A stretch of 64,000 nucleotides of DNA from Dictyostelium discoideum. Its lineage: Eukaryota. Below are positions 8,530-57,446 of the stretch, one piece after another. The notes under the pieces were generated by a model that saw only the letters and a program-made list of their open reading frames with translations, did no database searches and was not told the DNA's origin. Where the stretch lies: the NCBI GenBank assembly GCA_000004695.1, contig CM000154.2, positions 2,208,001 to 2,272,000 on the forward strand. Direction: 5' to 3'. Numbering within the stretch: the first letter of the stretch is position 1; each line of letters starts with the position of its first letter. The translations under genes were made by a program, and so were the position numbers.

Positions 8530-8610
8530 TTTCCAAAGGAAAAAAAAAAAATAATAATAATAGAAAAATATAAATTACTATATACAATTTTATTTATTAT
8601 ATTTAACCAT

Positions 8611-9089
8611 TTAATTTTGTTGTTGTTTTAATTTTAAATTTTCAATTACTTTTAAAGATTCTTCAATATGAGAGGTGGCACTTAATAAAGCTGAATAAGT
8701 ATTAAGTATTTTACTATCGATATCAATGATAAATGTAGTTCTACCAGGTAATAATAAACCTTTTACGCCATAAGATTTTGCATTTTACCATCTTTATCAC
8801 TTAATAAAGTGAATGGTAATTTATATTTCTGTGAAAATTTTGAATGACTTTCAGAATCATCACAACTTATACCTATTACATCAACACCAGCATCTACGAA
8901 TTTTTCATATCTATCCCTAAATTCACATGCTTCTTTGGTGCAAACTGGTGTACCATCTTTACCATAGAAATATAATACAATTGGTTTTTTATTTATAAGA
9001 TCTTTTAATGTTACAATTTTACCATCTTTATCTGCACATGAAAATTCTGGGGCATAATCCCCAACATTTAATTTAATGGATTTTGTCAT
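8611..9089 (-). CDS. BCP/PrxQ-type peroxiredoxin (AhpC/TSA family) with an apparent 1-nt frameshift near 8766..8774
   Basis: ORF 8763..9089 encodes MTKSIKLNVGDYAPEF…VLYFYGKDGTPVCTKEAC…GVDVIGISCDDSESHSKFSQKYKLPFTLLSDKDGKMQNLMA*, with the peroxidatic Cys in the motif T-P-V-C-T-K-E. The conserved C-terminal half (YGVKGLLLPGRTTFIIDIDSKILNTYSALLSATSHIEESLKVIENLKLKQQQN*, stop at 8613..8611) continues in another frame directly downstream. It aligns to E. coli BCP …FGVWGEKSFMGKTYDGIHRISFLIDADGKIEHVF…. The join implies one T is missing in …AATCT(T)TATGGCGTA…. Confidence 0.7.
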
Positions 9090-9582
9090 TTTCTTAATTT
9101 TTATTTTTATATTTTTTATTTTATTTAAATTAATATTATTTTTTATTTATATATTTATTTATTTGTTTGTTTTATGGTTATTAAAAAAAAAAAAAAAGAT
9201 TTATTTAAATATCATTTTAAAAATAAAAATGAACGAAATCGAAAGTATTCCATTTTTTTAAAGAATAATGGAAATTTTTAATTTCATACCACTTCAAAGA
9301 AATCAGAAAATGAAAAAAAAAATAAAAAAAAATAAAAAAAAATAAAAAAAATAAAAAAAATAAAAAATATAAAAAAAAAAAGAAAAAAATCAAGAGAAAA
9401 TTATTGACCAACATTGTTATAATATATTATTATTATTATTATCATCCTTTTTTTTTTTTTTTTTTTTTTATTATTCCTTTTAATAAAAAAAAAAAAAAAA
9501 AAACTAACAAAATTTTTCTTTATTTTTATTGGGTGGCAAAACCTAACCCAAACTTTTTTTTTTAAAAAAATTTTTATTAACC

Positions 9583-9850
9583 CAACAAAATATTTGCAGC
9601 TGATATCCACGAATGACCAATCGTTTTTATTTTATTATTAATATCCACGAGCGACCAATCGTTTTTATTTTTTACCAAAAATACGAATAATATTATGATG
9701 AGGTTTAAAATTCATAGCAAAAAAAAAAAAATTCGATAAAGCCTAATGGTTATTTGATAATGATTTCCAAACATAATCATTGTATTGAGATTATTTTAAT
9801 GGGTGCTATATATCTATTTTTTTGATAATTTACTTTTGACCAACCAAATT
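9583..9850 (+). repeat. Paralogous non-coding promoter-like element, copy A
   Basis: Layout: CCCAACAAAATATTTGC, then a tandem pair ATATCCACGA(A/G)(T/C)GACCAATCGTTTTTATTTT (9601..9668), then a conserved distal block ATAATCATTGTATTGAGATTATTTTAATGGGTGCTATATATCTATTTTTTTGATAATTTACTTTTGACCAACCAAATT. That block has a TATA box followed by an oligo-dT stretch, as in Dictyostelium Pol II promoters. The same layout recurs about 2.9 kb away at 12478..12760. No ORF follows. Confidence 0.5.
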
Positions 9851-9856
9851 ACAAAA

Positions 9857-9888
<32 letters not shown>

Positions 9889-12392
9889 AAAAAAAAAATA
9901 ATAATAATAATAATATAAATAAAAAAATATCCTCCCAAACCTAAACAGTTTTGAAAATAAAAAAATTAAAAAAACAAAAAAAATATTAATAAAAATAGTA
10001 TTAATAAATTATTATATTAAATATAATCATAAAAATTAAAAAAAAAAAATAAAAAAAATAAAAAAATAAAAAAAAAGAATTTGAAAAAGACAATCAAAAA
10101 TGTATTTACGTAATTCTTTTTTTATATTATTGTATTTGGGTTTATAAAAAATAAAAATAAAAAACAATAAATAAGAGAAAAAAAAAAGTATTAATAAATT
10201 ATTATGTTAAACTGGAAATTTCAAAAAAAAAAGTATTTTGGGTCAAACTGAAAAAAATCAAAAAAAAAAAAAAAAATATTAAATTTATTTTTTCTCTATT
10301 TCTATTTTTAAAAAAATGGTGAAACTGAAATACTCCCATTAAGCAAGAATTGAAAGAACGAAACTCAATAGATTGGTAAAATACATAAATGGGTGGTCCT
10401 TGTTGCATTTTTGTGAAGACTTCCCCAAAAACAGGGTTTAATGGTTGGAAATTGGAGAGGATTTTATTAAAAAAAAAAAAAAATTATTAAAAAAAAAATG
10501 GAAAAAAAAAAGAATTTGAAAAAAAAAAAAAATTAAAAATGTATTTACCTATTATTCTTTTTTTCTTTTTTTATATCTCTACATATTATTGCATTATTTG
10601 GGTTTTAAAAAAAATAATAAAAATTAGTTTAGGAAAAAAAAAAAAATATATTATTATTTTTTTTTTTTAATAATAATAGTTTTTTTTTTTTTTTTGAGTT
10701 AAATTGTTATTAAAACTTTTATTAAGAAATATGGAGGAAAATTATAAAGATATTATTTATTATATGATTAAAATTTTATTTATTTTTTTAATTGGAAATT
10801 AAAAGAAAATTGAAAAAAATCAGGTAAAACATTATAAGTTGATTTGTTTTGATTTTTTTTTTTTTTTTTTTTAAATATCCCTTTTTTTTATTATTATCAG
10901 AGGAACATAAACAATCACAATTTCAAGATTATTTCTCTAAAAAATAATAATAATAATAATAGTTTTAAAAATTGTGTTAGTACTTTTTTATTCTTTTTTT
11001 TTATTTTTTTAGAGCCACAAAAAATCTAATAATTTTTTTAAAGGAATAATATCTTCTTGGTGGCTATTTTTCAATTAATTAATTTTAAAAAACCTGTGGG
11101 AAAAAAAAAGAAAGAAAAAAAAAAAAAGAATATAAATGTTAGTAGGACTAAAATTATAATCCAGAATAATTAAATCTTCTCATGTTGGAAAAGACAAAAA
11201 AAAAAAAAAAAAAAAAATAGTTTTTTTCTTTTTCTTTTTCTTTTTTTTACTTACCAAAAGGCATTAGAAATACAAATTGGTTGGACTTGAAACTTTTTAT
11301 TTATACTGAGAAAAAATAATAAAAAAAAAAAAAAAAAAAAGAAAATTTAAAAATAAAAAAAATAAAAAAATGATGTAACAATGGCATTATTACATTTACA
11401 AATTACATCATAACGTATTGTTATTTAACATTTAAATATTCTAATAATAAAAAAAAAAAAAAAATAAAAAAAAAAAACTAATATAAATATAAAAAAAAAA
11501 CCCCAGAGAAAGAAAATAGATTGATGAAAAAGAATAATCTTCTGTGTGTGTGTCTTTTTTGTTTTGAAATGATTTTTTGAAATTTCAATATTTTCATAAC
11601 CACCAACAAAAAAAAAAATATTATTTTAAAAATAAAATTTGTAGTGAACCCCACCACACACAAAAATAAACAAAAAACAACTAGATTTAGGACTGAACAA
11701 CACATAATAAATTTAGTATTACAAACCACAGATTTTATTCGAAACTAATTGTTTAAAAAGCAGTTATTTTATAAAAAAAAAAAAAAATTAAAATAATAAT
11801 AGTTATTATTAGTATAATTATTATTTTTATTATTTTCACTTTTGAATTACCTAATTGATTAACCCCTTTTTTTTTTATTTTTATAATAAAAAATTAAAAA
11901 AAATGAAAAAATGATTCCGGAAGTGATTTTTATGAATTACCAGTTTTGAGTGACTATGGGTATATTTAAAATGAAAAGTGGACTGTTTTTTTTTTTTTTT
12001 TTTTTTTAAAAAATTGTCTGAATTCTTTGTTTGAATTAAACTCAAGAAAACCTTTGATAATAAAGTAAAAAGGTGGATAAATTTTTTTTTTTCAATAATC
12101 AAAAAAAAAAAAAAAAAAAGGATACGACTAGTCAAAATTTAACAACATTACAATAAAATTGTTCAACCCATTTACGGGGTTAATTGATTTACGTTATATA
12201 ATTCCAATTTGAATAAAAGTGTTTATCGGTTCAATTATTAATAAAAATAAAAAAAAAAAGGCTTTTTAATAATATTATTAAATGAATTTGTGAATCTTTT
12301 TTTTTTTTTATTATTTTAATTATTAAATTTTAACAATTTCGTGACCACCATTAAAGCACCTGTGCAATAAGCAAATTAAAAAAAAAAATTTC

Positions 12393-12423
<31 letters not shown>

Positions 12424-12477
12424 CAAAAAAAAACAAAATTTAAATATATCAAAATGTGTGCCTATTTTTATAAATAT

Positions 12478-12760
12478 CCCCAACAAAATATTTGCTTATT
12501 TTTTTCATTATTTTTTTTTTTCCAGGCGAGCAACCAATGGTTTTTTATAATAATATACTAAAAATAAGAATAACAAATTGAGCTTTTTTTATTTTTTTTT
12601 TTTAATCATTATTTTTTATAGCGAAAAAAGTCGATACCGCTTAACTTTCAAAACAAAATAGTTAAAAAAATAATCATTGTATTCAAATTATTTTTAATGG
12701 GCACGTTATATATCTATTTTTTTGATAAATAACCTTTTACCAACCAAAATTATTATTTTT
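12478..12760 (+). repeat. Paralogous non-coding promoter-like element, copy B
   Basis: Layout: CCCCAACAAAATATTTGC, then CCAGGCGAGCAACCAATGGTTTTTT, then …ATAATCATTGTATTCAAATTATTTTTAATGGGCACGTTATATATCTATTTTTTTGATAAATAACCTTTTACCAACCAAAATT. This can be aligned to copy A across the head motif, the CCAAT-containing GC island and the TATA/oligo-T block. Confidence 0.5.
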
Positions 12761-14933
12761 TTTTTTTTTTTTCAAATTCCTTTTTTTTTTTTTTTTTTTT
12801 TTTTTTTCCCAACTGTCATTTGACAAAAATAACTATTTTTACTAAATTACAAAACAAAACAAAAAAAAAAAAAAAGCTTTTTTAAATTTTTTTTTTTTTT
12901 TTTTTATTTTTTTTTATTTTTTTTTTTTTTCCAAAAATTAATTTACCATTACCGCAATGGTACCAGTTGATTTTTATTTTTTTTTTATTCAAAAAAAAAT
13001 ATTAAAATAAAAAAAAAAATATTAAAATAAAAAAAAAAAAAAAAATAAAAAAAAAATGAAAATAAAAAAAAAAAACCACTTTTCCATGGTTTGAATTCAC
13101 ACACTTTCAAATTAATTTAATTGAGAATTCAAAATCTAGATATTTTTTAAATTTAAACGTTTAAAATTTAAACAAAATTATTTTTTATGACACGATGTGC
13201 TTCCTTTTAAGAAATGGTGGATGTTAAAAAATACTGAAATAAGATTCACAGATCTATATTATAGATTAATCCTAAAAACAAATAAATATAATGCGATGAA
13301 GCCTCACCAATATTAAAAAATGGGTTAGTTAGCCTCAATTAGTCGGGCATCCGTTTACCATCAATTATTTAAAACAAAACAAGATCTATCACTCACTTTA
13401 AATATAGGTTTGTAAATGAATTTAAAAGAATAAATTAAAATTTTTATTTTTTTTTTATTTTTATTTTATTTTTTTTTTTTTTTTCTAAAATAACACTATA
13501 AATTAAAAATTTTTTTTCATTATTATTTTTTTTTTTTCTAAAATAACAATCGATTATTTATTATTAAAAAAAAAAAAAAAAAATCAAAAAATAAAATAAA
13601 AAAAATCAAAAAAATAATAATAAAAATAATAATAATAAAAAAATAAAAATAAAATAAGGGATTAGGAAAAAAAAAAAAAAAAAAAAAAAATTTTTAAAAA
13701 AGATCTTTTTTTTTTTTAAAATTCCCCCCGCTCATTATAAATATTGTATATAAAAAACCAAAAAAAAAAAAACCATCAAAAAAATAATAAAAATAATAAT
13801 AATAAAAAAAATATTCTTAATAATTTTCTAAAAAAAAAAAAAAATAAAAACACCAATAATAATAATAATAATACACACACTTTTTTTTTTTTAATAACGA
13901 AAATCAAAAAAAAAAAAAAAAAAATATCTTTTTTTGCCAATACTCGAAAGCTTTTAAAAATAACAAAAGAAGTTTGGTAAGTTTTTTTTTTTTATTTTAA
14001 TTTTTTTTTAATTTAATTTTTTTTTTATTTTTTATTTTATTTTTTTTTTTTTTAATTTTTTTTTTTTTCATTCTTCGCAGCCAAAATAATGGCAAATCTC
14101 CAAAATAATTTGACCGTTTTTTTGGATATTTTTTACGATTTCCCACCTTGGAGACATTATTGTCACAATGTTTTTTTTTTAAAAAATTAGCGAGCAGCCC
14201 AAATGTTTTTTTAAGTGCAAATCATGTGATAACTGTATCCAATGGCGTTGTTTCTTTTTTTTTTTAGATATGTAAAGCAAAGCCACTGCTTATTGTTTTT
14301 TTTTTCTTTTTTTTTTTTTTTTTGATTTTTTTTTTTTTGTGCGCAGCCTCCTCGCCAATAAAAAAATTTTAAATTTAATTTTAATTTTTTAAAATATCCA
14401 TAGTTTATTCTTTTTTCTTTTTTTTTTTTTTTTTTTTTTTTATTTTTATATTTTTTTTTTTTTTTCTTTTTTTTATTTTTTTGATAATCCATAAATTGTT
14501 ATACGCTTTATTTTTTTATTTAAAAAATAATAATAAAAATCTACCTATATAATATATAATATATAATAAAATAAATTAGATTGTGTTTTTTTTTTTTCTT
14601 TTTTAAAAATTTAATAATAATAATTTATTACAAATCAATTAAATATTTTTATTATTAAACATTATAAATAATATAAAATTTTATTAAATTAATTATTTAT
14701 ACACCTTTCGTTTTTTAATTATAACACATATAACTTCATTCTTAAATATATTTTTTTTATTATAATTTTAAAAAAAAAAAAATAAATAATATAAAAACTT
14801 TTTTTTTTTTTTAAACAAAAATAATCACAACTGTTTTTTTAAATTTTATATATATATTATAAAAAATAAAAAACAAAAAAAAAAATTAAAAAAAATAAAA
14901 ACTTCAAAAACCCTTGATCTGCATTCACAAATA

Positions 14934-14966
14934 TCACCCACCCACACATACACACACAAACCCTTA
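14934..14966. promoter_or_regulatory. C/A-rich element (CACCCACCCACACATACACACACAAACCC) upstream of the cyclin-like gene
   Basis: A conspicuous CA/GT-rich island about 630 bp upstream of the ATG at 15594. A second ACACACACACC sits at 15131..15141. These resemble the G-box / C-rich elements bound by the G-box binding factor in Dictyostelium developmental promoters. Confidence 0.3.
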
Positions 14967-15593
14967 CCATAGACATTTTTTATTTCACCTTTTATTTTTT
15001 ACACTTTTTAAAATTTAAAAAAGCCATTTTTTTTATTTTTTTTATTTTTTTTTCTTTTGCAAAACAATTACAATTTCCTATTTATTTGTAATTGACCTTA
15101 ACAGTTTGATATACTGAGAATATCATTTCATAAAAAAACACACACACACCGATCTATAAAAAAAAAAAAAAAAAAAAAAAAACCTACAATTATTTTTTTA
15201 TTTTTTTTCCAAATTTATATAAACTTTTTTTTGTTTTTTTATTTTTGAAACAAAACATCTTCCAGTTTTTTTTTTTTTAATTTTTTTAATTTAATTTTTC
15301 AAATTAATTTAAAAAGACCCAATCAAATTCCATTATTTCCCCACACCTTTCAAATTAATACCATATATAAAATAATTTTTCTTTTTTGTGTAGTTTAACT
15401 TGTTACAATTTGTGCAAACATATATTAATTAAAAAATAATTTTTTTTTTTTTTTTGCATCACCAATCCAAAAATAGTAATAATACCTCATTAGTCGTTAA
15501 TTTAAATTTTTTAATAATATAATATAATATAATATAATTAATTAATAATATAAATAAAAAAAGAAAAATAAAAAAATAAATAAAATAAAAAAA

Positions 15594-15644
15594 ATGGAAC
15601 CAACAACCACCACTACTACAACTCAAAATCAAGAAGTTGATAAT

Positions 15645-32954: not shown

Positions 32955-33714
32955 TCTTTTTTTTATTTATTTAATTATTTTTTTTTTATTTTATTATTAC
33001 TGCGTGAATGGAAAATGGAATTTTAATTTTTTTTTATTTTTTTTTTTTTTGATGGAAAAAAAAAAAAATTTTGGGAAAAAAAAAAAAAAAAAAAAAAAAT
33101 ATATGAAGAAAAGCTAAATTATAATTATGTCAATATATAAAAATTAAATAAATAAATAAATAAAAGAAAAAAATAAATAATGGTAATAATAAAATAATAA
33201 AATAATAAAATAATAAATAATTTTTTTTTTAAAAAAAAAAAAAGATTAAAAATAAAAGAAAATAAAAAAAAAAAATAAAAATTTTATAAAAAAAAATTAT
33301 AACAAATATACTATATTTATTGTGATGATGAATGGGATTTTTTTTAAAAAAAAATATATTTGCTTATTTATTTTATTATTTTCCTTTTTCTTTTTTTGGA
33401 TGATGATGTATTATTTTTATATATATTAAAAAAATATTTTAAAATAATTATGTTATTTGATTATTTATTACAAAAAAAATAAAAAAATAAAATAAAAATA
33501 AATAATAAAAAATTAAAAAAAAAGGAAAAAAAAAAAAAGGAAAAGGAAATATCTTTGGTATACAAAATGGTTGTGGTGTTGTTGATTTAGTCATCTATGG
33601 GTCAGTGTGGTTTATGAGTATATGTAATATTTGTTTGAATTTATATATGAGGTAGTGGCTTATTTAAAACAAAATACTATTTGTGATTACTATCTCTAAG
33701 TGTTATGTGTTTAT

Positions 33715-33740
33715 GTTGTGTGTGTGTGTGTGTGTGTGTG
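33715..33740. repeat. (GT)12 dinucleotide microsatellite inside a G/T-rich island
   Basis: The run GTTGTGTGTGTGTGTGTGTGTGTGTGG is visible directly. It is embedded in a 200-bp G/T-rich block (33560..33760) upstream of the 28776..32954 gene. Confidence 0.8.
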
Positions 33741-34400
33741 GAAAAGTGTGTTAGACATTAATGGGTTAAATTTTTTTTTTTTGTTTTTTTATACAAATAA
33801 AAAAATAATAATAATTTTATACATATATAAATTTATATTAAATATTTATATAATATATATGTTTATATAGTAAAATTTATTTTTAATAATAAATATATTA
33901 ATATGAACAAAAAAAAATAAAAAAATAAAAAAATAAAAAAAAAAAAATGGGTTAATTTATTTTATTATTATAAAACAAATTGATTCACTGATTGATTGAG
34001 TAAGGAATAACAATATTTACAATGATAATTGCAAAAATCATTGACAAAATGAGTGATTTAAATTTGATACTCACTTTCACATATAAAATTATTAAGGATT
34101 TTTCTTTATTTTTTTTTTATTTTTATAATAAAAAAAAAAATTTTCTTTTTCCAAAACAATGAAGTTTATTGCCTTTTGCTGTTATTGCTTTATTTGTAGT
34201 TTATATAATTAGTTTAATATATCTTTATTTTGTTGTTTGTTTTTTGTTTACTTGTAGTTTTTCAAATATTTTTAGTGTTTTTTTAAAATTGATATATCAC
34301 TAATTATTTTTAACCTTTACTTTTTTATTTTATTTTATTTTATTTTATTTGTATTATTTTTATTTTATTTAATTTGTATTATTTTGGAAAAACATATATA

Positions 34401-34436
<36 letters not shown>

Positions 34437-34762
34437 TTTGGTATGTATTTTTTATTTTTTTATTTTTTATTTTTAAAATTGAATTGGTTTCCTATTTGAG
34501 GAAACAATTTATTATAATGATAATCTTTATGAGGTTAGGGGGGTATTTATTTTTAGAATTTATTAAAAATATAAATAAAAAAAAAAAAATGAATAAAAAA
34601 GTGAATAGAAAAAAAAAAAAAAAAAAAAATGAATTAATTAAATAAAAAAAATAAAAATAATAATTAAATTAAAAATAAGTATCTCTTTCAGTTTGTGAAT
34701 TTGCGTGTTTATGAATAAAAAATTAATTATTTAATTTGGGTTTATATTGTTAATTTAAAACC

Positions 34763-34802
<40 letters not shown>

Positions 34803-35746
34803 ATGTGCAAAGTGTGAGAAAGTGGGTTGTTATTGTTTTAATTGTTAAAAGGTTTAGTGCGAGTGTTTTTGTTCTTTTTTCTTTAATTTTAGTAGTAGCG
34901 GTAGTACTTTCTACCAAAATACGTTATTGTCGTATTCAAAATTGATGTTATTAACAAGTGGTCTAAAAAAAATTAAAAAAAAAAAAAAAGGTGCTTTAAC
35001 AAAAATTTGGATTTCTTTTTTTTTTTTCTATTTCCTTTTTTCTTTAAATTACAAAAAATTTAAAAAAAATAAAAAAAAAAAAAGTTATTTTTATTTTTTT
35101 TTTTTGTAATTTTATTTTTTTTTTAATTTTTTTTTTTTTTTTTTTTTTGATTGAAACGTCCTTTGGTATTAAAGTATTAAGAAACTAATTTTGATTAGAG
35201 TATTTCGTTTTTTTATTATTGCTTTTATTGCCTATTTGATATAGAAAAAAAAATAAAAAATAAAAATAAAAAAAATAAAAATAAAAAATAAATAAAATAA
35301 AAATAATTAAAAAATAAAAAAACTATTGTTATTGCCCCTAAAAAATAATATTTCTTGGATGTGATCTAATTTTTCAGATTTCGTGGTTAAGTAACCAAAA
35401 AAAAAAAAAAAAAAATTTACTTTTTTAAATTTTGGTTTTGTTTTTTTTTTTTTGGTATATTATGATAATTAAACAATAATTTAATCTAGATTATCTTTTT
35501 AAAATGAAGTGTTGTCATCCAATTTTTTTCTGTATATAAAATTATTTATTCTAAAATAAAAAAAAAAACAATGTCTTAAACCATTTTTTAAAATTTTTTT
35601 TAAAAAAAAAAAAAAAATAAAATAAAATAATATTAAATTTAAAAAAAAAAAAAAAACAAAACTTTTTTTATTGTATTTTCATTTTTTTTATAAGCACATT
35701 TGCCAATTTATGTGTATGTAAGTGAGGTGTGTGTATGTACGAATAA

Positions 35747-41617: not shown

Positions 41618-41727
41618 TTTATTTGGTCAGATTTGTGCGAACACGGACGGTTAATTTCAAAGCCTACGAATGAACGCGAGCTCAACAGACGATCAGATAA
41701 TGTGCAACCAATCATCATTCAAATATT
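41618..41727 (-). ncRNA. Candidate box C/D snoRNA, about 106 nt
   Basis: The minus-strand sequence is 5'-UAUUUG A AUGAUGA U UGGUUGCACAUUAU CUGA UCGUCUGUUGAGCUCGCGUUCAUUCGUAGGCUUUGAAAUUAACCGUCCGUGUUCGCACAAAU CUGA CC AAAUA-3'. It has a perfect box C (AUGAUGA), a D' box (CUGA) 15 nt downstream, a terminal box D (CUGA), and a 6-bp terminal stem (UAUUUG/CAAAUA) flanking C and D in the canonical way. It sits on a GC island of about 45% in a 4-kb AT-rich spacer. Confidence 0.45.
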
Positions 41728-42571
41728 ACCCTTTACAAAAAATAAAAATGACAAATTTTCATTGTTTTTATTCATTTAAAAAACATCATTTTTTTTATTC
41801 ATTTTTTATTATGGGTCAAAAATTTTTTTAAAAAAAACGAAAAAAGTCATTTTTTTTTTTTTACTTTTTCCCCAAACACCGATATGGTTTTGGCAAAAAC
41901 ATATTCATTTAAAATTTATTTATAACTATTTAGAAAAAAAAAAAAAAAAAAAAAAATTATTCTTTCCAGTTTCCAAACAATTGTATAAGAGGAATGCATT
42001 AAGGGTATCATTCTGATGTCAAAGTCCAACAATATTCAGCTAGAAATATCTTTCAAAAATCTATTATCATTATAATCATTTCATTATTATTAATCTCAAA
42101 TATTTAAAATAAATAAAATAATAAGAAATTAGGTTTCACTCTTAAAGTTTTATTTTTAAAATTTTATTTATTATTAAAGTTTGCACTATGGAAATCTTTT
42201 TTGAGTATTAAATACATTAAAAGTTTTTTATTTTTAGATTACAATACCCATAAAGATTTAATTTTGTCATTCTGTTTTTTTTTTCTTTTTAAGGAAATTA
42301 AAAAACTCCTTTTTTTTTTTCTTTTTTATACACATTTATATAAAAAAAATAAAAAATAAAACATTAAAAAAAAAAAACTCGCGCCTTTTTTTCATAAAAA
42401 AAAAAAAAAAGTAAAAAAAAAAAAAAAAAGGAATTTTTTTTTTTTTCCAAAGTTGTTTTTTTTAAATATACATTTGCTCATTGAGCTATACACAATAATA
42501 ATAAAAATAAATAAATAAAATAAAAGTTGTAATAAATATTTAAATAAATATAAAAAAAAAAGATAAATAAA

Positions 42572-57373: not shown

Positions 57374-57446
57374 GGGGATGTAGCTCAGATGGTAGAGCGC
57401 TCGCTTAGCATGCGAGAGGTAAAGGGATCGATACCCTTCTTCTCCA
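57374..57446 (+). tRNA. tRNA-Ala (anticodon AGC) with an atypical T-loop, followed by a T8 terminator
   Basis: The sequence GGGGATGTAGCTCAGATGGTAGAGCGCTCGCTTAGCATGCGAGAGGTAAAGGGATCGATACCCTTCTTCTCCA folds as a cloverleaf. The acceptor stem GGGGATG/CTTCTCC includes the G3:U70 Ala identity pair, the A-box reads TAGCTCAGATGGTAGAG, and the anticodon loop is CTTAGCATG (AGC at 57407..57409). The T-arm is AAGGG-ATCGATA-CCCTT, so position 54 is A rather than T and the B-box (GGGATCGATACC) deviates from GGTTCGANTCC. TTTTTTTT at 57447..57454 is a Pol III terminator. Confidence 0.75.

Follow-up and report, generated by a model that had tools for sequence, protein, structure and literature searches.

The gene-free tract and its two related elements

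The window analysed here, a stretch of 64 kb in whose own numbering positions are given, corresponds to chr5:2,208,001-2,272,000 of Dictyostelium discoideum AX4. Between a peroxiredoxin gene and a gene encoding a PHO80-type cyclin lies a gene-free tract of 6.5 kb (9090-15593), which forms an unusually long upstream tract of the cyclin gene. The NCBI annotation of a second D. discoideum assembly has no gene call in it, and no conserved reading frame was found in an alignment of five genomes. This agrees with an earlier note on this DNA, which had placed two related elements in a gene-free region of 6.5 kb without a downstream protein-coding frame. An exact look-up of the 235-aa protein in a cluster collection gave no entry. 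The tract contains two copies, A and B, of a non-coding module, and the features are as follows.

9089, minus strand: start codon of the peroxiredoxin gene, left border of the gene-free tract
9570-9850 (chr5:2,217,570-2,217,850), plus strand: copy A, non-coding module of ~280 bp, aligns to B
9580-9597, plus strand: head motif of A, (A)CCCAACAAAATATTTGC; the exact 17-mer is also in B
9603-9671, plus strand: tandem CCAAT island with T-run of A (9603-9633 and 9641-9671; period 38; 29/31 identical)
9675-9690, plus strand: common block of A, CCAAAAATACGAATAA; the B equivalent is CTAAAAATAAGAATAA at 12558-12573
9773-9828, plus strand: 3' block of A, ATAATCATTGTATTGAGATTATTTTAATGGG..TATATATCTA-T7-GATAA (TATA-like box, oligo-dT and GATA site); 22-mer identical in B
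9839-9848, plus strand: tail of A, ACCAACCAAA, end of the homology 25-35 nt past the TATA-like box; followed by ~47 nt of poly-A
12464-12750 (chr5:2,220,464-2,220,750), plus strand: copy B, non-coding module of ~280 bp, aligns to A
12478-12495, plus strand: head motif of B, CCCCAACAAAATATTTGC; the exact 17-mer is also in A
12522-12546, plus strand: CCAAT island with T-run of B, CCAGGCGAGCAACCAATGGTTTTTT; CCAAT.GTTTTT is kept in the B orthologues
12670-12728, plus strand: 3' block of B, homologous to 9773-9828; 22-mer identical in A
12739-12748, plus strand: tail of B, ACCAACCAAA; followed by poly-T runs and then by the conserved CCCAACTGTCATTTGACAAAAATAACTATTTTTACTAA
15594 (chr5:2,223,594): start codon of the PHO80-type cyclin gene, right border of the gene-free tract

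Copies A and B lie 2.9 kb apart in the same orientation and are true non-coding paralogues. Plain repeat finding and BLASTN self-comparison were swamped by poly-A/T and were replaced by composition-aware methods, namely an information-weighted exact-match scan and an AT-corrected local aligner combined with shuffles. The local alignment of 9570-9848 with 12464-12748 reaches 73.8 bits (AT-corrected log-odds matrix), which is far above the score of 40 locally shuffled controls (36.1±3.0, maximum 44.1), and no third copy was detected in the 64-kb window, where the next best scores are at most 34 bits. The pair proposed in the earlier note is real, with small corrections of its coordinates, and its block of about 80 bp with about 85% identity is borne out as well: the copies are ~70% identical overall and roughly 82-85% identical in the last ~80 nt. 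An exact 17-mer and an exact 22-mer are common to both at matching spacing, the distance from the head to the start of the TATA block being 226 nt in A and 228 nt in B. A tandem duplication of the entire 2.9 kb was looked for and not found: the homology stops at ~280 bp and the flank alignments beyond it consist of poly-A/poly-T. Neither copy has the properties of a protein-coding exon: no frame is kept, the indels are of arbitrary length and not multiples of three, and the longest local ORFs have no Pfam match.

Blocks common to both copies

From 5' to 3', the elements that A and B have in common are the C-rich head, the CCAAT box and its T-run, ATCATTGT…TAATGGG, TATATATCTA followed by T7 and GATAA, and ACCAACCAAA. 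The head CCCAACAAAATATTTGC, correctly described before as common to both copies, is an exact 17-mer that occurs exactly twice in the 64 kb, at 9581-9597 and 12479-12495, both on the plus strand. The two D. cf. discoideum strains as well as D. citrinum have CCCCAACAAAATATTTGC unchanged at the head of their A copies; the heads of the B orthologues differ and read CCCCAATAAAATATTTGC in the two cf. strains, TCCCATTATAAAATATTTGC in D. citrinum and CCCCATCATGATGTTTGC in D. dimigraforme. A full-text literature search found no published mention of the head sequence. A match to the TATAAATA consensus just 5' of the B head (12469-12476) was dropped for lack of conservation in three of five genomes.

The CCAAT island of A is indeed duplicated in tandem, at 9603-9633 and 9641-9671 and not at 9601-9668 as first given. 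Its unit, ATATCCACGA[A/G][T/C]GACCAATCGTTTTTATTTT, was located by pattern search as a 38-bp period that Tandem Repeats Finder did not report. Since both D. cf. discoideum strains have a single unit, the second one is specific to D. discoideum. RRCCAATSR is the NF-Y-type consensus, and the flanks of the CCAAT boxes in A agree with it. CCAAT.GTTTTT is present in every one of the five B orthologues; of the four A copies, three have it, and in that of D. citrinum it is deleted. Across the tract, CCAAT occurs 11 times on the plus strand vs 4.3±1.9 expected; on the minus strand it does not occur at all from 11300 onward. Further downstream, C.AAAAA.A is invariant in an alignment of nine sequences (9675-9690 in A, 12558-12573 in B).

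The TATA block TATATATCTATTTTTTTGATAA is found exactly at 9807-9828 and 12707-12728, whereas shuffles give 0.13 matches with up to three mismatches. ATATCTA is invariant in all nine sequences and TAATGGG is present in seven, the exceptions being TAGTGGG in D. citrinum B and TTATGGG in D. citrinum A, so that only a T..GGG core is invariant. The TATA core is degraded in D. citrinum A; D. citrinum B has an A-run in place of the T-run and GATAA, and has lost the tail ACCAACCAAA. A slower decay of high-complexity sequence than of homopolymer runs could yield apparently conserved blocks without selection. At 70% identity, moreover, chance alone should leave an exact 17-mer, and an exact 22-mer is only mildly surprising.

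As summarised by Chang et al. 2012 (PMC3371697), who cite Kimmel and Firtel (1983), the Dictyostelium Pol II core promoter consists of TATAAA(A/T)(A/T) embedded in sense-strand oligo-dT, and transcription starts 25-30 bp past the TATA box and ~2 bp past the T tract. The earlier note had read the end of both copies as such a core. The arrangement holds, in that a TATA-like box directly followed by T7 is kept in both copies on the plus strand and the homology ends 25-35 nt further on; the box itself, TATATATC in both copies, departs from TATAAA(A/T)(A/T). Both copies also resemble such promoters in their CCAAT-type upstream elements and in having the orientation of the downstream cyclin gene. 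Unlike them, they are followed by neither an ORF nor a catalogued RNA, and D. citrinum B carries the A-run. A relaxed TATA plus T-run pattern is not very specific, as it occurs ~39 times in the 64 kb (both strands, overlapping matches included); within the tract, all five matches are on the plus strand.

Orthologues, age and the neutral alternative

The genomes compared comprise two D. discoideum assemblies, two D. cf. discoideum strains, D. citrinum and D. dimigraforme; D. firmibasis, D. purpureum and more distant species lie outside the synteny placement. The protein searches used for placing relatives gave no Group-4 orthologues with the cyclin-like gene and only three with SMC6. Both copies are syntenic and collinear in the second D. 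discoideum assembly, both D. cf. discoideum strains and D. citrinum. Orthologues of A lie at the loci L001, L005 (14432-14210), L007 (8518-8275) and L008 (about 8325-8080), and those of B, present in all five genomes, include L005 11663-11381, L007 6585-6344, L008 about 5925-5640 and L003 8376-8152. L003, from D. dimigraforme, has B alone and lacks A. The presence of both copies at syntenic sites indicates that the duplication predates the splits of the relatives that carry them. Among D. discoideum and D. cf. discoideum, A clusters with A and B with B, the D. citrinum copies being on long branches; the duplication is thus old, with no obvious recent gene conversion. In L007 and L008, A is kept although the peroxiredoxin gene is missing from the locus, hence A is not simply the peroxiredoxin promoter. 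Probably B is the ancestral copy, as it occurs in every genome examined and lies within the broadly conserved 4.5-kb part of the tract (11040-15593), and A the derived one, located in an AT-rich spacer with rapid DNA turnover. This spacer is rich in indels and holds, besides the 38-bp tandem unit, other local duplications, for example 10035-10208/10466-10660 (56.7 bits vs 21.7±3).

In such an environment, A and B could be a neutral relic, that is, the products of a local duplication that arose by chance in a spacer prone to duplication and deletion; only their complex parts would not yet have decayed, and neither copy would be functional. This is a possible explanation, although a rather unlikely one. 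It is favoured by the conservation of B, which is no better than that of ordinary intergenic DNA (0.6-0.8 identity per 50-nt window across the genomes, nearby intergenic DNA about 0.65-0.9) and lower than that of several adjoining blocks. B also differs from the second D. discoideum assembly at 3 positions in 287 bp, so differences between the two assemblies are not depleted in it. Loss and decay are lineage-specific (A is absent and the B head diverged in D. dimigraforme, the B 3' block decayed in D. citrinum), the same spacer contains the other local duplications and large indels, and no catalogued transcript begins at A or B. However, four of five genomes have retained both copies in syntenic position, and when D. 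discoideum is compared with the cf. strains, A stands out at 0.85-0.95 identity from flanks of 0.2-0.6. D. citrinum A is only ~61% identical overall, yet its head 18-mer is identical, and the retained blocks match recognisable promoter motifs, all on one strand. Between paralogues as well as orthologues, short blocks are kept and the intervening homopolymer spacers differ in length, a pattern that fits regulatory DNA and not RNA or coding sequence.

Transcription from the tract

The lncRNA catalogue of Rosengarten (PMC5295588, File S4) spans 24 h of development and was filtered permissively (≥200 nt, ≥2 reads). It contains no model at chr5 2,217,850 onward or 2,220,750 onward, downstream of A and B, respectively; at the level of this catalogue, the proposal that the two elements are promoters driving unannotated non-coding RNAs finds no support. 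The sole catalogue model in the tract is a minus-strand RNA of 255 nt at 14044-14299. A candidate plus-strand intron (GTAAGT at 13976, CAG at 14081), considered as part of a spliced transcript from B, has become doubtful: the one RNA that the catalogue places here is a minus-strand RNA, and the T-rich "intron" corresponds to the poly-A side of its 3' end.

It is unlikely that each copy is an autonomous promoter whose own non-coding RNA starts near ACCAACCAAA and runs rightwards, given a permissive catalogue without a model downstream of A or B. The TATA-like box with oligo-dT, located 25-35 nt before the end of the homology in the correct orientation, would suit such a promoter, as would CCCAACTGTCATTTGACAAAAATAACTATTTTTACTAA, which is conserved in all five genomes past the variable poly-T run of B; poly-T tracts that end just before the start site are described as the rule in D. 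discoideum (PMC3371697). Downstream of A, however, poly-A is followed by DNA that is poorly conserved and partly deleted in close relatives, and Rfam gave nothing credible at E≤10 in 9000-15600. A variant of this idea is that the DUSE-variant head, the CCAAT box and, ~225 nt on, the TATA/oligo-dT core form an undescribed Pol II promoter architecture, present as a redundant pair upstream of the cyclin gene and producing short or unstable non-coding RNAs that standard catalogues miss. We consider this variant improbable.

Dispersed repeats and transposons

The earlier note had also suggested a small dispersed repeat family. No extra copy was found, either elsewhere in the 64-kb window or in ~60 kb of relatives' DNA from the paralogous, non-syntenic peroxiredoxin loci L002, L004 and L006, which speaks against this suggestion. 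TRE elements target sites 50-100 bp from tRNA genes. Like the A-module and C-module of TRE5-A, DIRS-1, Skipper, DDT, Tdd and thug, the two copies are short and non-coding and might have promoter activity, and A is followed by oligo-A as is the C-module. Unlike these elements, they have no tRNA gene within 50-100 bp and no adjacent ORFs, and there are only two of them, both syntenic. That they represent a low-copy dispersed repeat or a transposon fragment, with A for instance being a retrocopy that ends in its ~47-nt poly-A, is very improbable. A and its orthologues do run into A-rich tracts, a weak AAACCTAA…AAAC..TTTT similarity at 9540-9560/9933-9952 could be a target-site duplication, and in both minimum-free-energy folds the head pairs with the TAATGGG region as an imperfect inverted repeat. 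On the other hand, the copies are fixed at syntenic sites and old (70% identity), the window's only tRNA gene is at 57374, the ends carry no terminal inverted repeats, B has no poly-A while poly-A tracts are ubiquitous in this DNA, and D. cf. discoideum has not kept the putative target-site duplication.

Comparison with DUSE-driven RNA genes

The DUSE has the form [AT]CCCA[AT]AA and is located about 63 bp upstream of the RNA (PMC3188802); TCCCACAA and ACCCATAA are real examples. The earlier note had described the head as resembling this element inexactly and had proposed a comparison with known DUSE-driven loci. The inexact resemblance stands: ACCCAACA in A agrees at seven of eight positions and CCCCAACA in B at six, and neither head is among the exact matches to WCCCAYAA or WCCCAWAA in the window. 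A DUSE promoter is not what the comparison revealed, since the heads fail in consensus as well as in spacing, while the canonical DUSE ACCCATAA was found, as a positive control, upstream of the DdR7 snoRNA in the same window. No RNA follows ~60 nt past either head; instead, there is the CCAAT island with an immediate run of T5-6 (9655-9671; 12534-12546). The TGTG box AAATGTG does not occur at DUSE spacing, its only occurrence near B being at ~12452, upstream of the head.

Further tests for RNA genes gave the same picture. At the gathering threshold, Rfam detected nothing in the whole window except DdR7 and a tRNA. The Class I motif CCTTACAGC has no match with up to one mismatch in the window, and the rows listed in the Class I supplementary tables contain no number matching chr5 2,217,000-2,222,999. 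RNAalifold found 0 conserved pairs in the nine sequences, and the fold z-scores against shuffles are -0.08 for A and -1.17 for B. The copies resemble DUSE-dependent non-coding RNA genes (Class I/II RNAs, snRNAs and some snoRNAs) in their C-rich head, in which CCCA is followed by A-rich sequence, and in their location in a gene-free tract; they differ from them in that an RNA ~60 nt on, a TGTG box at +60, the Class I stem and 11-nt motif, Rfam matches and structure are absent. A structured small RNA gene that comprises the 280-nt unit or a part of it, with the DUSE-like head driving it, is already largely refuted and extremely improbable: the A head is close to the DUSE and the T-runs past the CCAAT island could stop Pol III, but only ~20 nt fit before the T-run at correct DUSE spacing, the consensus is missed, and pairs, notable fold z-scores, Rfam matches and CCTTACAGC are all lacking. 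Taken as a whole, the earlier reading holds for the paralogy, the non-coding nature and the TATA box with oligo-dT, and finds no support for the DUSE, for transcripts of their own in the catalogue, or for a dispersed family in the window and the ~60 kb of relatives' DNA.

Tentative regulatory interpretation and significance

The absence of a DUSE-driven RNA gene and of a catalogued transcript at A and B points to ordinary duplicated regulatory-type DNA. In view of the observed paralogy, age, synteny, motif retention and lack of RNA-gene features, the explanation that we favour, tentatively and with slightly less than even confidence, is an old local duplication, in the same orientation, of ~280 bp of promoter- or enhancer-type non-coding DNA upstream of the PHO80-type cyclin gene. 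The simplest reading of the surviving blocks is as putative protein-binding sites, not as parts of an RNA; they would belong to a plus-strand Pol II cis-regulatory module, which may be a weak or alternative promoter, or an enhancer. Factors may bind to the blocks, B may act on the cyclin gene or on a nearby transcript, and A may be a redundant or decaying duplicate. Duplicated ("shadow") cis-regulatory modules and alternative distal promoters upstream of developmental genes provide a possible parallel, as A and B are likewise diverged and co-oriented within one long conserved upstream tract and consist of short conserved motif blocks with flexible spacers. They differ in that A is located in a fast-evolving spacer and is missing in one species.

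At present, the main value of the finding is negative: a DUSE-like appearance together with a TATA box and a T-run is insufficient to call a non-coding RNA gene here, and the minus-strand lncRNA at 14044-14299, which is conserved and already in the catalogue, is the more interesting object in the tract. An A+T content of over 85% makes regulatory DNA difficult to read in this genome. If B or both copies are active, they would offer a compact module whose motifs are defined (head, CCAAT, TATA/oligo-dT) for dissecting promoter or enhancer logic, and would be an example of a duplicated regulatory module that has been retained over several species.

Two paralogous copies in a gene-free tract

The two non-coding copies, A and B, lie in the same orientation within one gene-free tract. 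The orientation of the window is that of AX4 chr5:2,208,001-2,272,000, as placed via the chromosomal position of the snoRNA DdR7.

9090-15593: gene-free tract, with both copies inside
left border, - strand: BCP-type peroxiredoxin gene
right border, + strand: PHO80-type cyclin gene
9570-9850 (chr5:2,217,570-2,217,850), + strand: copy A, from local alignment to B
9603-9633 and 9641-9671: duplicated CCAAT unit of A
12464-12750 (chr5:2,220,464-2,220,750), + strand: copy B, from local alignment to A

Every element of the architecture claimed by the earlier note, from the head to the TATA box with its oligo-dT stretch, was found in the sequence. The 17-mer CCCAACAAAATATTTGC and the 22-mer TATATATCTATTTTTTTGATAA each occur exactly twice in the window; head and TATA block are 226 nt apart in A and 228 nt apart in B. 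Since ordinary repeat tools are swamped by poly-A/T here, a log-odds matrix fitted to the local base frequencies (A 0.44, T 0.40, C 0.09, G 0.07) was used. The best local alignment between the tract halves, 9570-9848 against 12464-12748, scored 73.8 bits, compared with 36.1±3.0 bits for locally shuffled controls (n=40). The homology is limited to about 280 bp because the flanks of A and B align only in homopolymer runs; no third copy of the module was found in the 64-kb window. The pair is a real observation, best explained by an old local duplication of putative promoter- or enhancer-type DNA within the long upstream tract of the cyclin gene. B would likely be the original, and A a copy in a spacer which itself tends to duplicate and lose DNA.

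The same spacer contains a second local paralogous non-coding pair (10035-10208 and 10466-10660, ~431 bp apart; 56.7 bits versus a null of 21.7±3.0), which has the common sequence GAATTTG…AAAAATGTATTTAC.TA.TTCTTTTTTT…ATTATTG.ATTTGGGTTT. Positions 10170-11019, part of the second-pair segment, are missing in D. cf. discoideum ACTFIY.

In a second D. discoideum assembly (GCA_054883475.1), a 5.29-Mb chromosome encodes a single-exon protein of the window and matches the window DNA at 99.5% identity across 20.7 kb. Nearly all of the 45 base differences fall within the gene-free tract (9448-14886), with a dense cluster at 10412-10501; either variation between strains or poor reference sequence could account for this. 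The peroxiredoxin gene (8610-9089, - strand) carries a 1-nt deletion after ...LSDKDGK, which breaks its frame; once the frame is repaired, the protein shares 92% identity along its entire length with the intact one of D. dimigraforme. This frameshift is also present in the second assembly, whose annotation skips over it by means of a 29-nt 'intron'. At the syntenic position, neither D. cf. discoideum ACTFIY nor D. citrinum has the gene; in D. citrinum, an intact copy lies at another locus.

Age and conservation of the copies

With peroxiredoxin and SMC6 serving as anchors, the syntenic tract was obtained from four other genomes: D. dimigraforme, D. cf. discoideum ACTFIZ, D. cf. discoideum ACTFIY and D. 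citrinum. Orthologues of both A and B are present in the two D. cf. discoideum strains and, collinear and more diverged, in D. citrinum, whose A has the exact head CCCCAACAAAATATTTGC and whose B retains AAAATATTTGCTTATTTTTTT, the CCAAT box, ATCATTGT and TATATATCTA. About 2 kb (window 9381-11349), A among them, are absent from D. dimigraforme, which carries B alone. Within D. discoideum and D. cf. discoideum, the A copies cluster together, as do the B copies.

A versus B within D. discoideum: 70% identity
Orthologues among discoideum, cf. and dimigraforme: 85-96% identity
Orthologues with D. citrinum: 61-65% identity

Judged from this grouping and these identities, the duplication predates the discoideum/citrinum split, with no obvious sign of recent gene conversion between A and B. 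The 38-bp tandem unit in A is specific to D. discoideum.

The whole tract was aligned across five genomes, and conservation was measured as mean identity per 50 nt. The segment 11040-15593 is broadly conserved (0.7-0.95), and 9390-11040, where A is located, is indel-rich (0.2-0.6). B reaches 0.6-0.8, against ~0.65-0.9 in neighbouring ordinary intergenic DNA, ~0.53 in an intron and 0.93-0.99 in coding sequence, and is thus not better conserved than ordinary intergenic DNA; the neighbouring blocks 13090-13440, 14040-14290, 14640-14740 and 15290-15490 are better conserved than B. Compared with the cf. strains, A is an island at 0.85-0.95 identity, with low-complexity flanks that are difficult to align. 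The T-run, GATAA and ACCAACC were lost from B of D. citrinum, and the centre of the head is altered in B of D. dimigraforme. Between the two D. discoideum assemblies there are 3 differences in B and 0 in A, versus ~0.7% over the tract. Taken together, these comparisons provide mixed evidence for purifying selection on the copies. The main rival explanation is that A and B are a purely neutral relic; a function is plausible. Short coding-like identity islands within the 4.5 kb upstream of the cyclin gene (11040-15593) are 13090-13440, 14640-14740 and 15290-15490.

Putative regulatory features

Most or all of nine sequences, namely four A and five B copies across five genomes, retain the following blocks.

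the head
AGC.ACCAAT.GTTTTT: CCAAT box
C.AAAAATA
AAAAAA.T.GATA
ATCATTGTA.T…TAATGGG
TATATATCTA with T-run and GATAA
ACCAA.CAAA

The flanks of the CCAAT box fit the NF-Y-type consensus, RRCCAATSR. The spacers between the blocks are homopolymer runs of varying length; B of ACTFIY, for example, lacks ~50 nt. Kept blocks with variable homopolymer spacers are the binding-site pattern of regulatory DNA, the sites themselves being putative. In the Dictyostelium core promoter, a sense-strand TATA box is embedded in poly-T (Chang et al., PMC3371697), and transcription starts 25-30 bp past the TATA box and ~2 bp past the T tract (PMC3371697). The 3' block of A and B fits this arrangement in the plus-strand direction, whereas its TATATATC deviates from the TATA consensus. 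All TATA plus T-run matches in the tract (5/5) are on the plus strand, which also carries 11 CCAAT motifs versus 4.3±1.9 expected; from 11300 on, the minus strand of the tract has none. This bias would agree with a long regulatory region in plus orientation for the cyclin gene.

Related sequences occur elsewhere in the tract: at 14190-14212, GCGAGCAGCCCAAATGTTTTTTT nearly repeats the CCAAT island of B, and TATTTTTTTGATAAT is found for a third time at 14474-14489. A stretch at 12806-12845, CCCAACTGTCATTTGACAAAAATAACTATTTTTACTAA, just past the variable poly-T runs 3' of B, is nearly invariant in five genomes and includes (C/T)AACTG, a site of Myb type, as well as CTATTTTTAC, which is MEF2/SRF-like. 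The 50 nt at 15440-15490 (GCATCACCAATCCAAAAATAG…), immediately after a T16 run and 137 nt upstream of the cyclin gene ATG, are identical in 5/5 genomes and are probably the start-site region of this gene; ACCAATCCAAAA therein resembles the tail ACCAACCAAA of A and B.

Mobile-element and RNA-gene readings

A possible alternative is that A and B belong to a low-copy mobile or repeat family, as would fit the ~47 nt of poly-A after A and a weak putative target-site duplication. However, poly-A tracts are everywhere here, and the target-site similarity is not retained in the cf. strains. Moreover, the window holds two copies alone, both syntenic across species; terminal repeats are absent, ~60 kb from unrelated loci of relatives yielded no copy, and there is no tRNA gene nearby of the kind targeted by TRE elements.

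The earlier note also saw a resemblance of the head to DUSE and read the copies as possible promoters of unannotated non-coding transcripts. DUSE, [AT]CCCA[AT]AA, lies ~63 bp upstream of ncRNAs (PMC3188802), and its distance to the start site or to a TGTG box is given as ~60 nt (PMC7919456); real examples include TCCCACAA and ACCCATAA. The heads deviate from it at one (A) and two (B) positions, and neither is an exact match; 60 nt past either head there is a CCAAT island ending in a T-run and nothing else. As a positive control, the window has the canonical DUSE ACCCATAA at 41809-41816 (- strand), 88 nt upstream of DdR7.

41624-41721 (chr5:2,249,625-2,249,721), - strand: DdR7 snoRNA, from Rfam, D. 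discoideum-specific

DdR7 is named CD7 in Table S5 of PMC8817022, and the probe sequence agrees. An Rfam search of 9000-15600 gave no match even at E≤10, the Class I motif is absent from the window, RNAalifold found 0 conserved pairs in the nine sequences, and the folding energies of A and B are those of shuffles. The DUSE/ncRNA-gene reading is not supported. That the copies are non-coding was borne out, as the five-genome alignment contains no conserved reading frame and no Pfam domain was found.

Transcripts in the tract

Transcription downstream of the copies was checked in the lncRNA table curated by Rosengarten et al. (PMC5295588, File S4), whose filters are permissive (≥200 nt, ≥2 raw reads, wholly intergenic). 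For chr5:2,217,090-2,223,594, it lists one model alone.

14044-14299 (chr5:2,222,044-2,222,299), - strand: lncRNA DDB_G3970241, 255 nt (PMC5295588 File S4)

No model in this catalogue, which is not raw coverage, starts past A or B. This weighs against stable plus-strand transcripts ≥200 nt from either copy and is compatible with short, unstable or condition-specific RNAs. A second catalogued lncRNA, DDB_G3971269 (1908 nt), is located at 33116-35024 on the + strand. DDB_G3970241 falls on a non-coding block that ranks among the best conserved (mean identity of 0.87-0.95 in five genomes; 98-100% identity to D. dimigraforme), and its fold is better than 199/200 shuffles (z = -2.87). DDB_G3970241 may be the most interesting object of the region.
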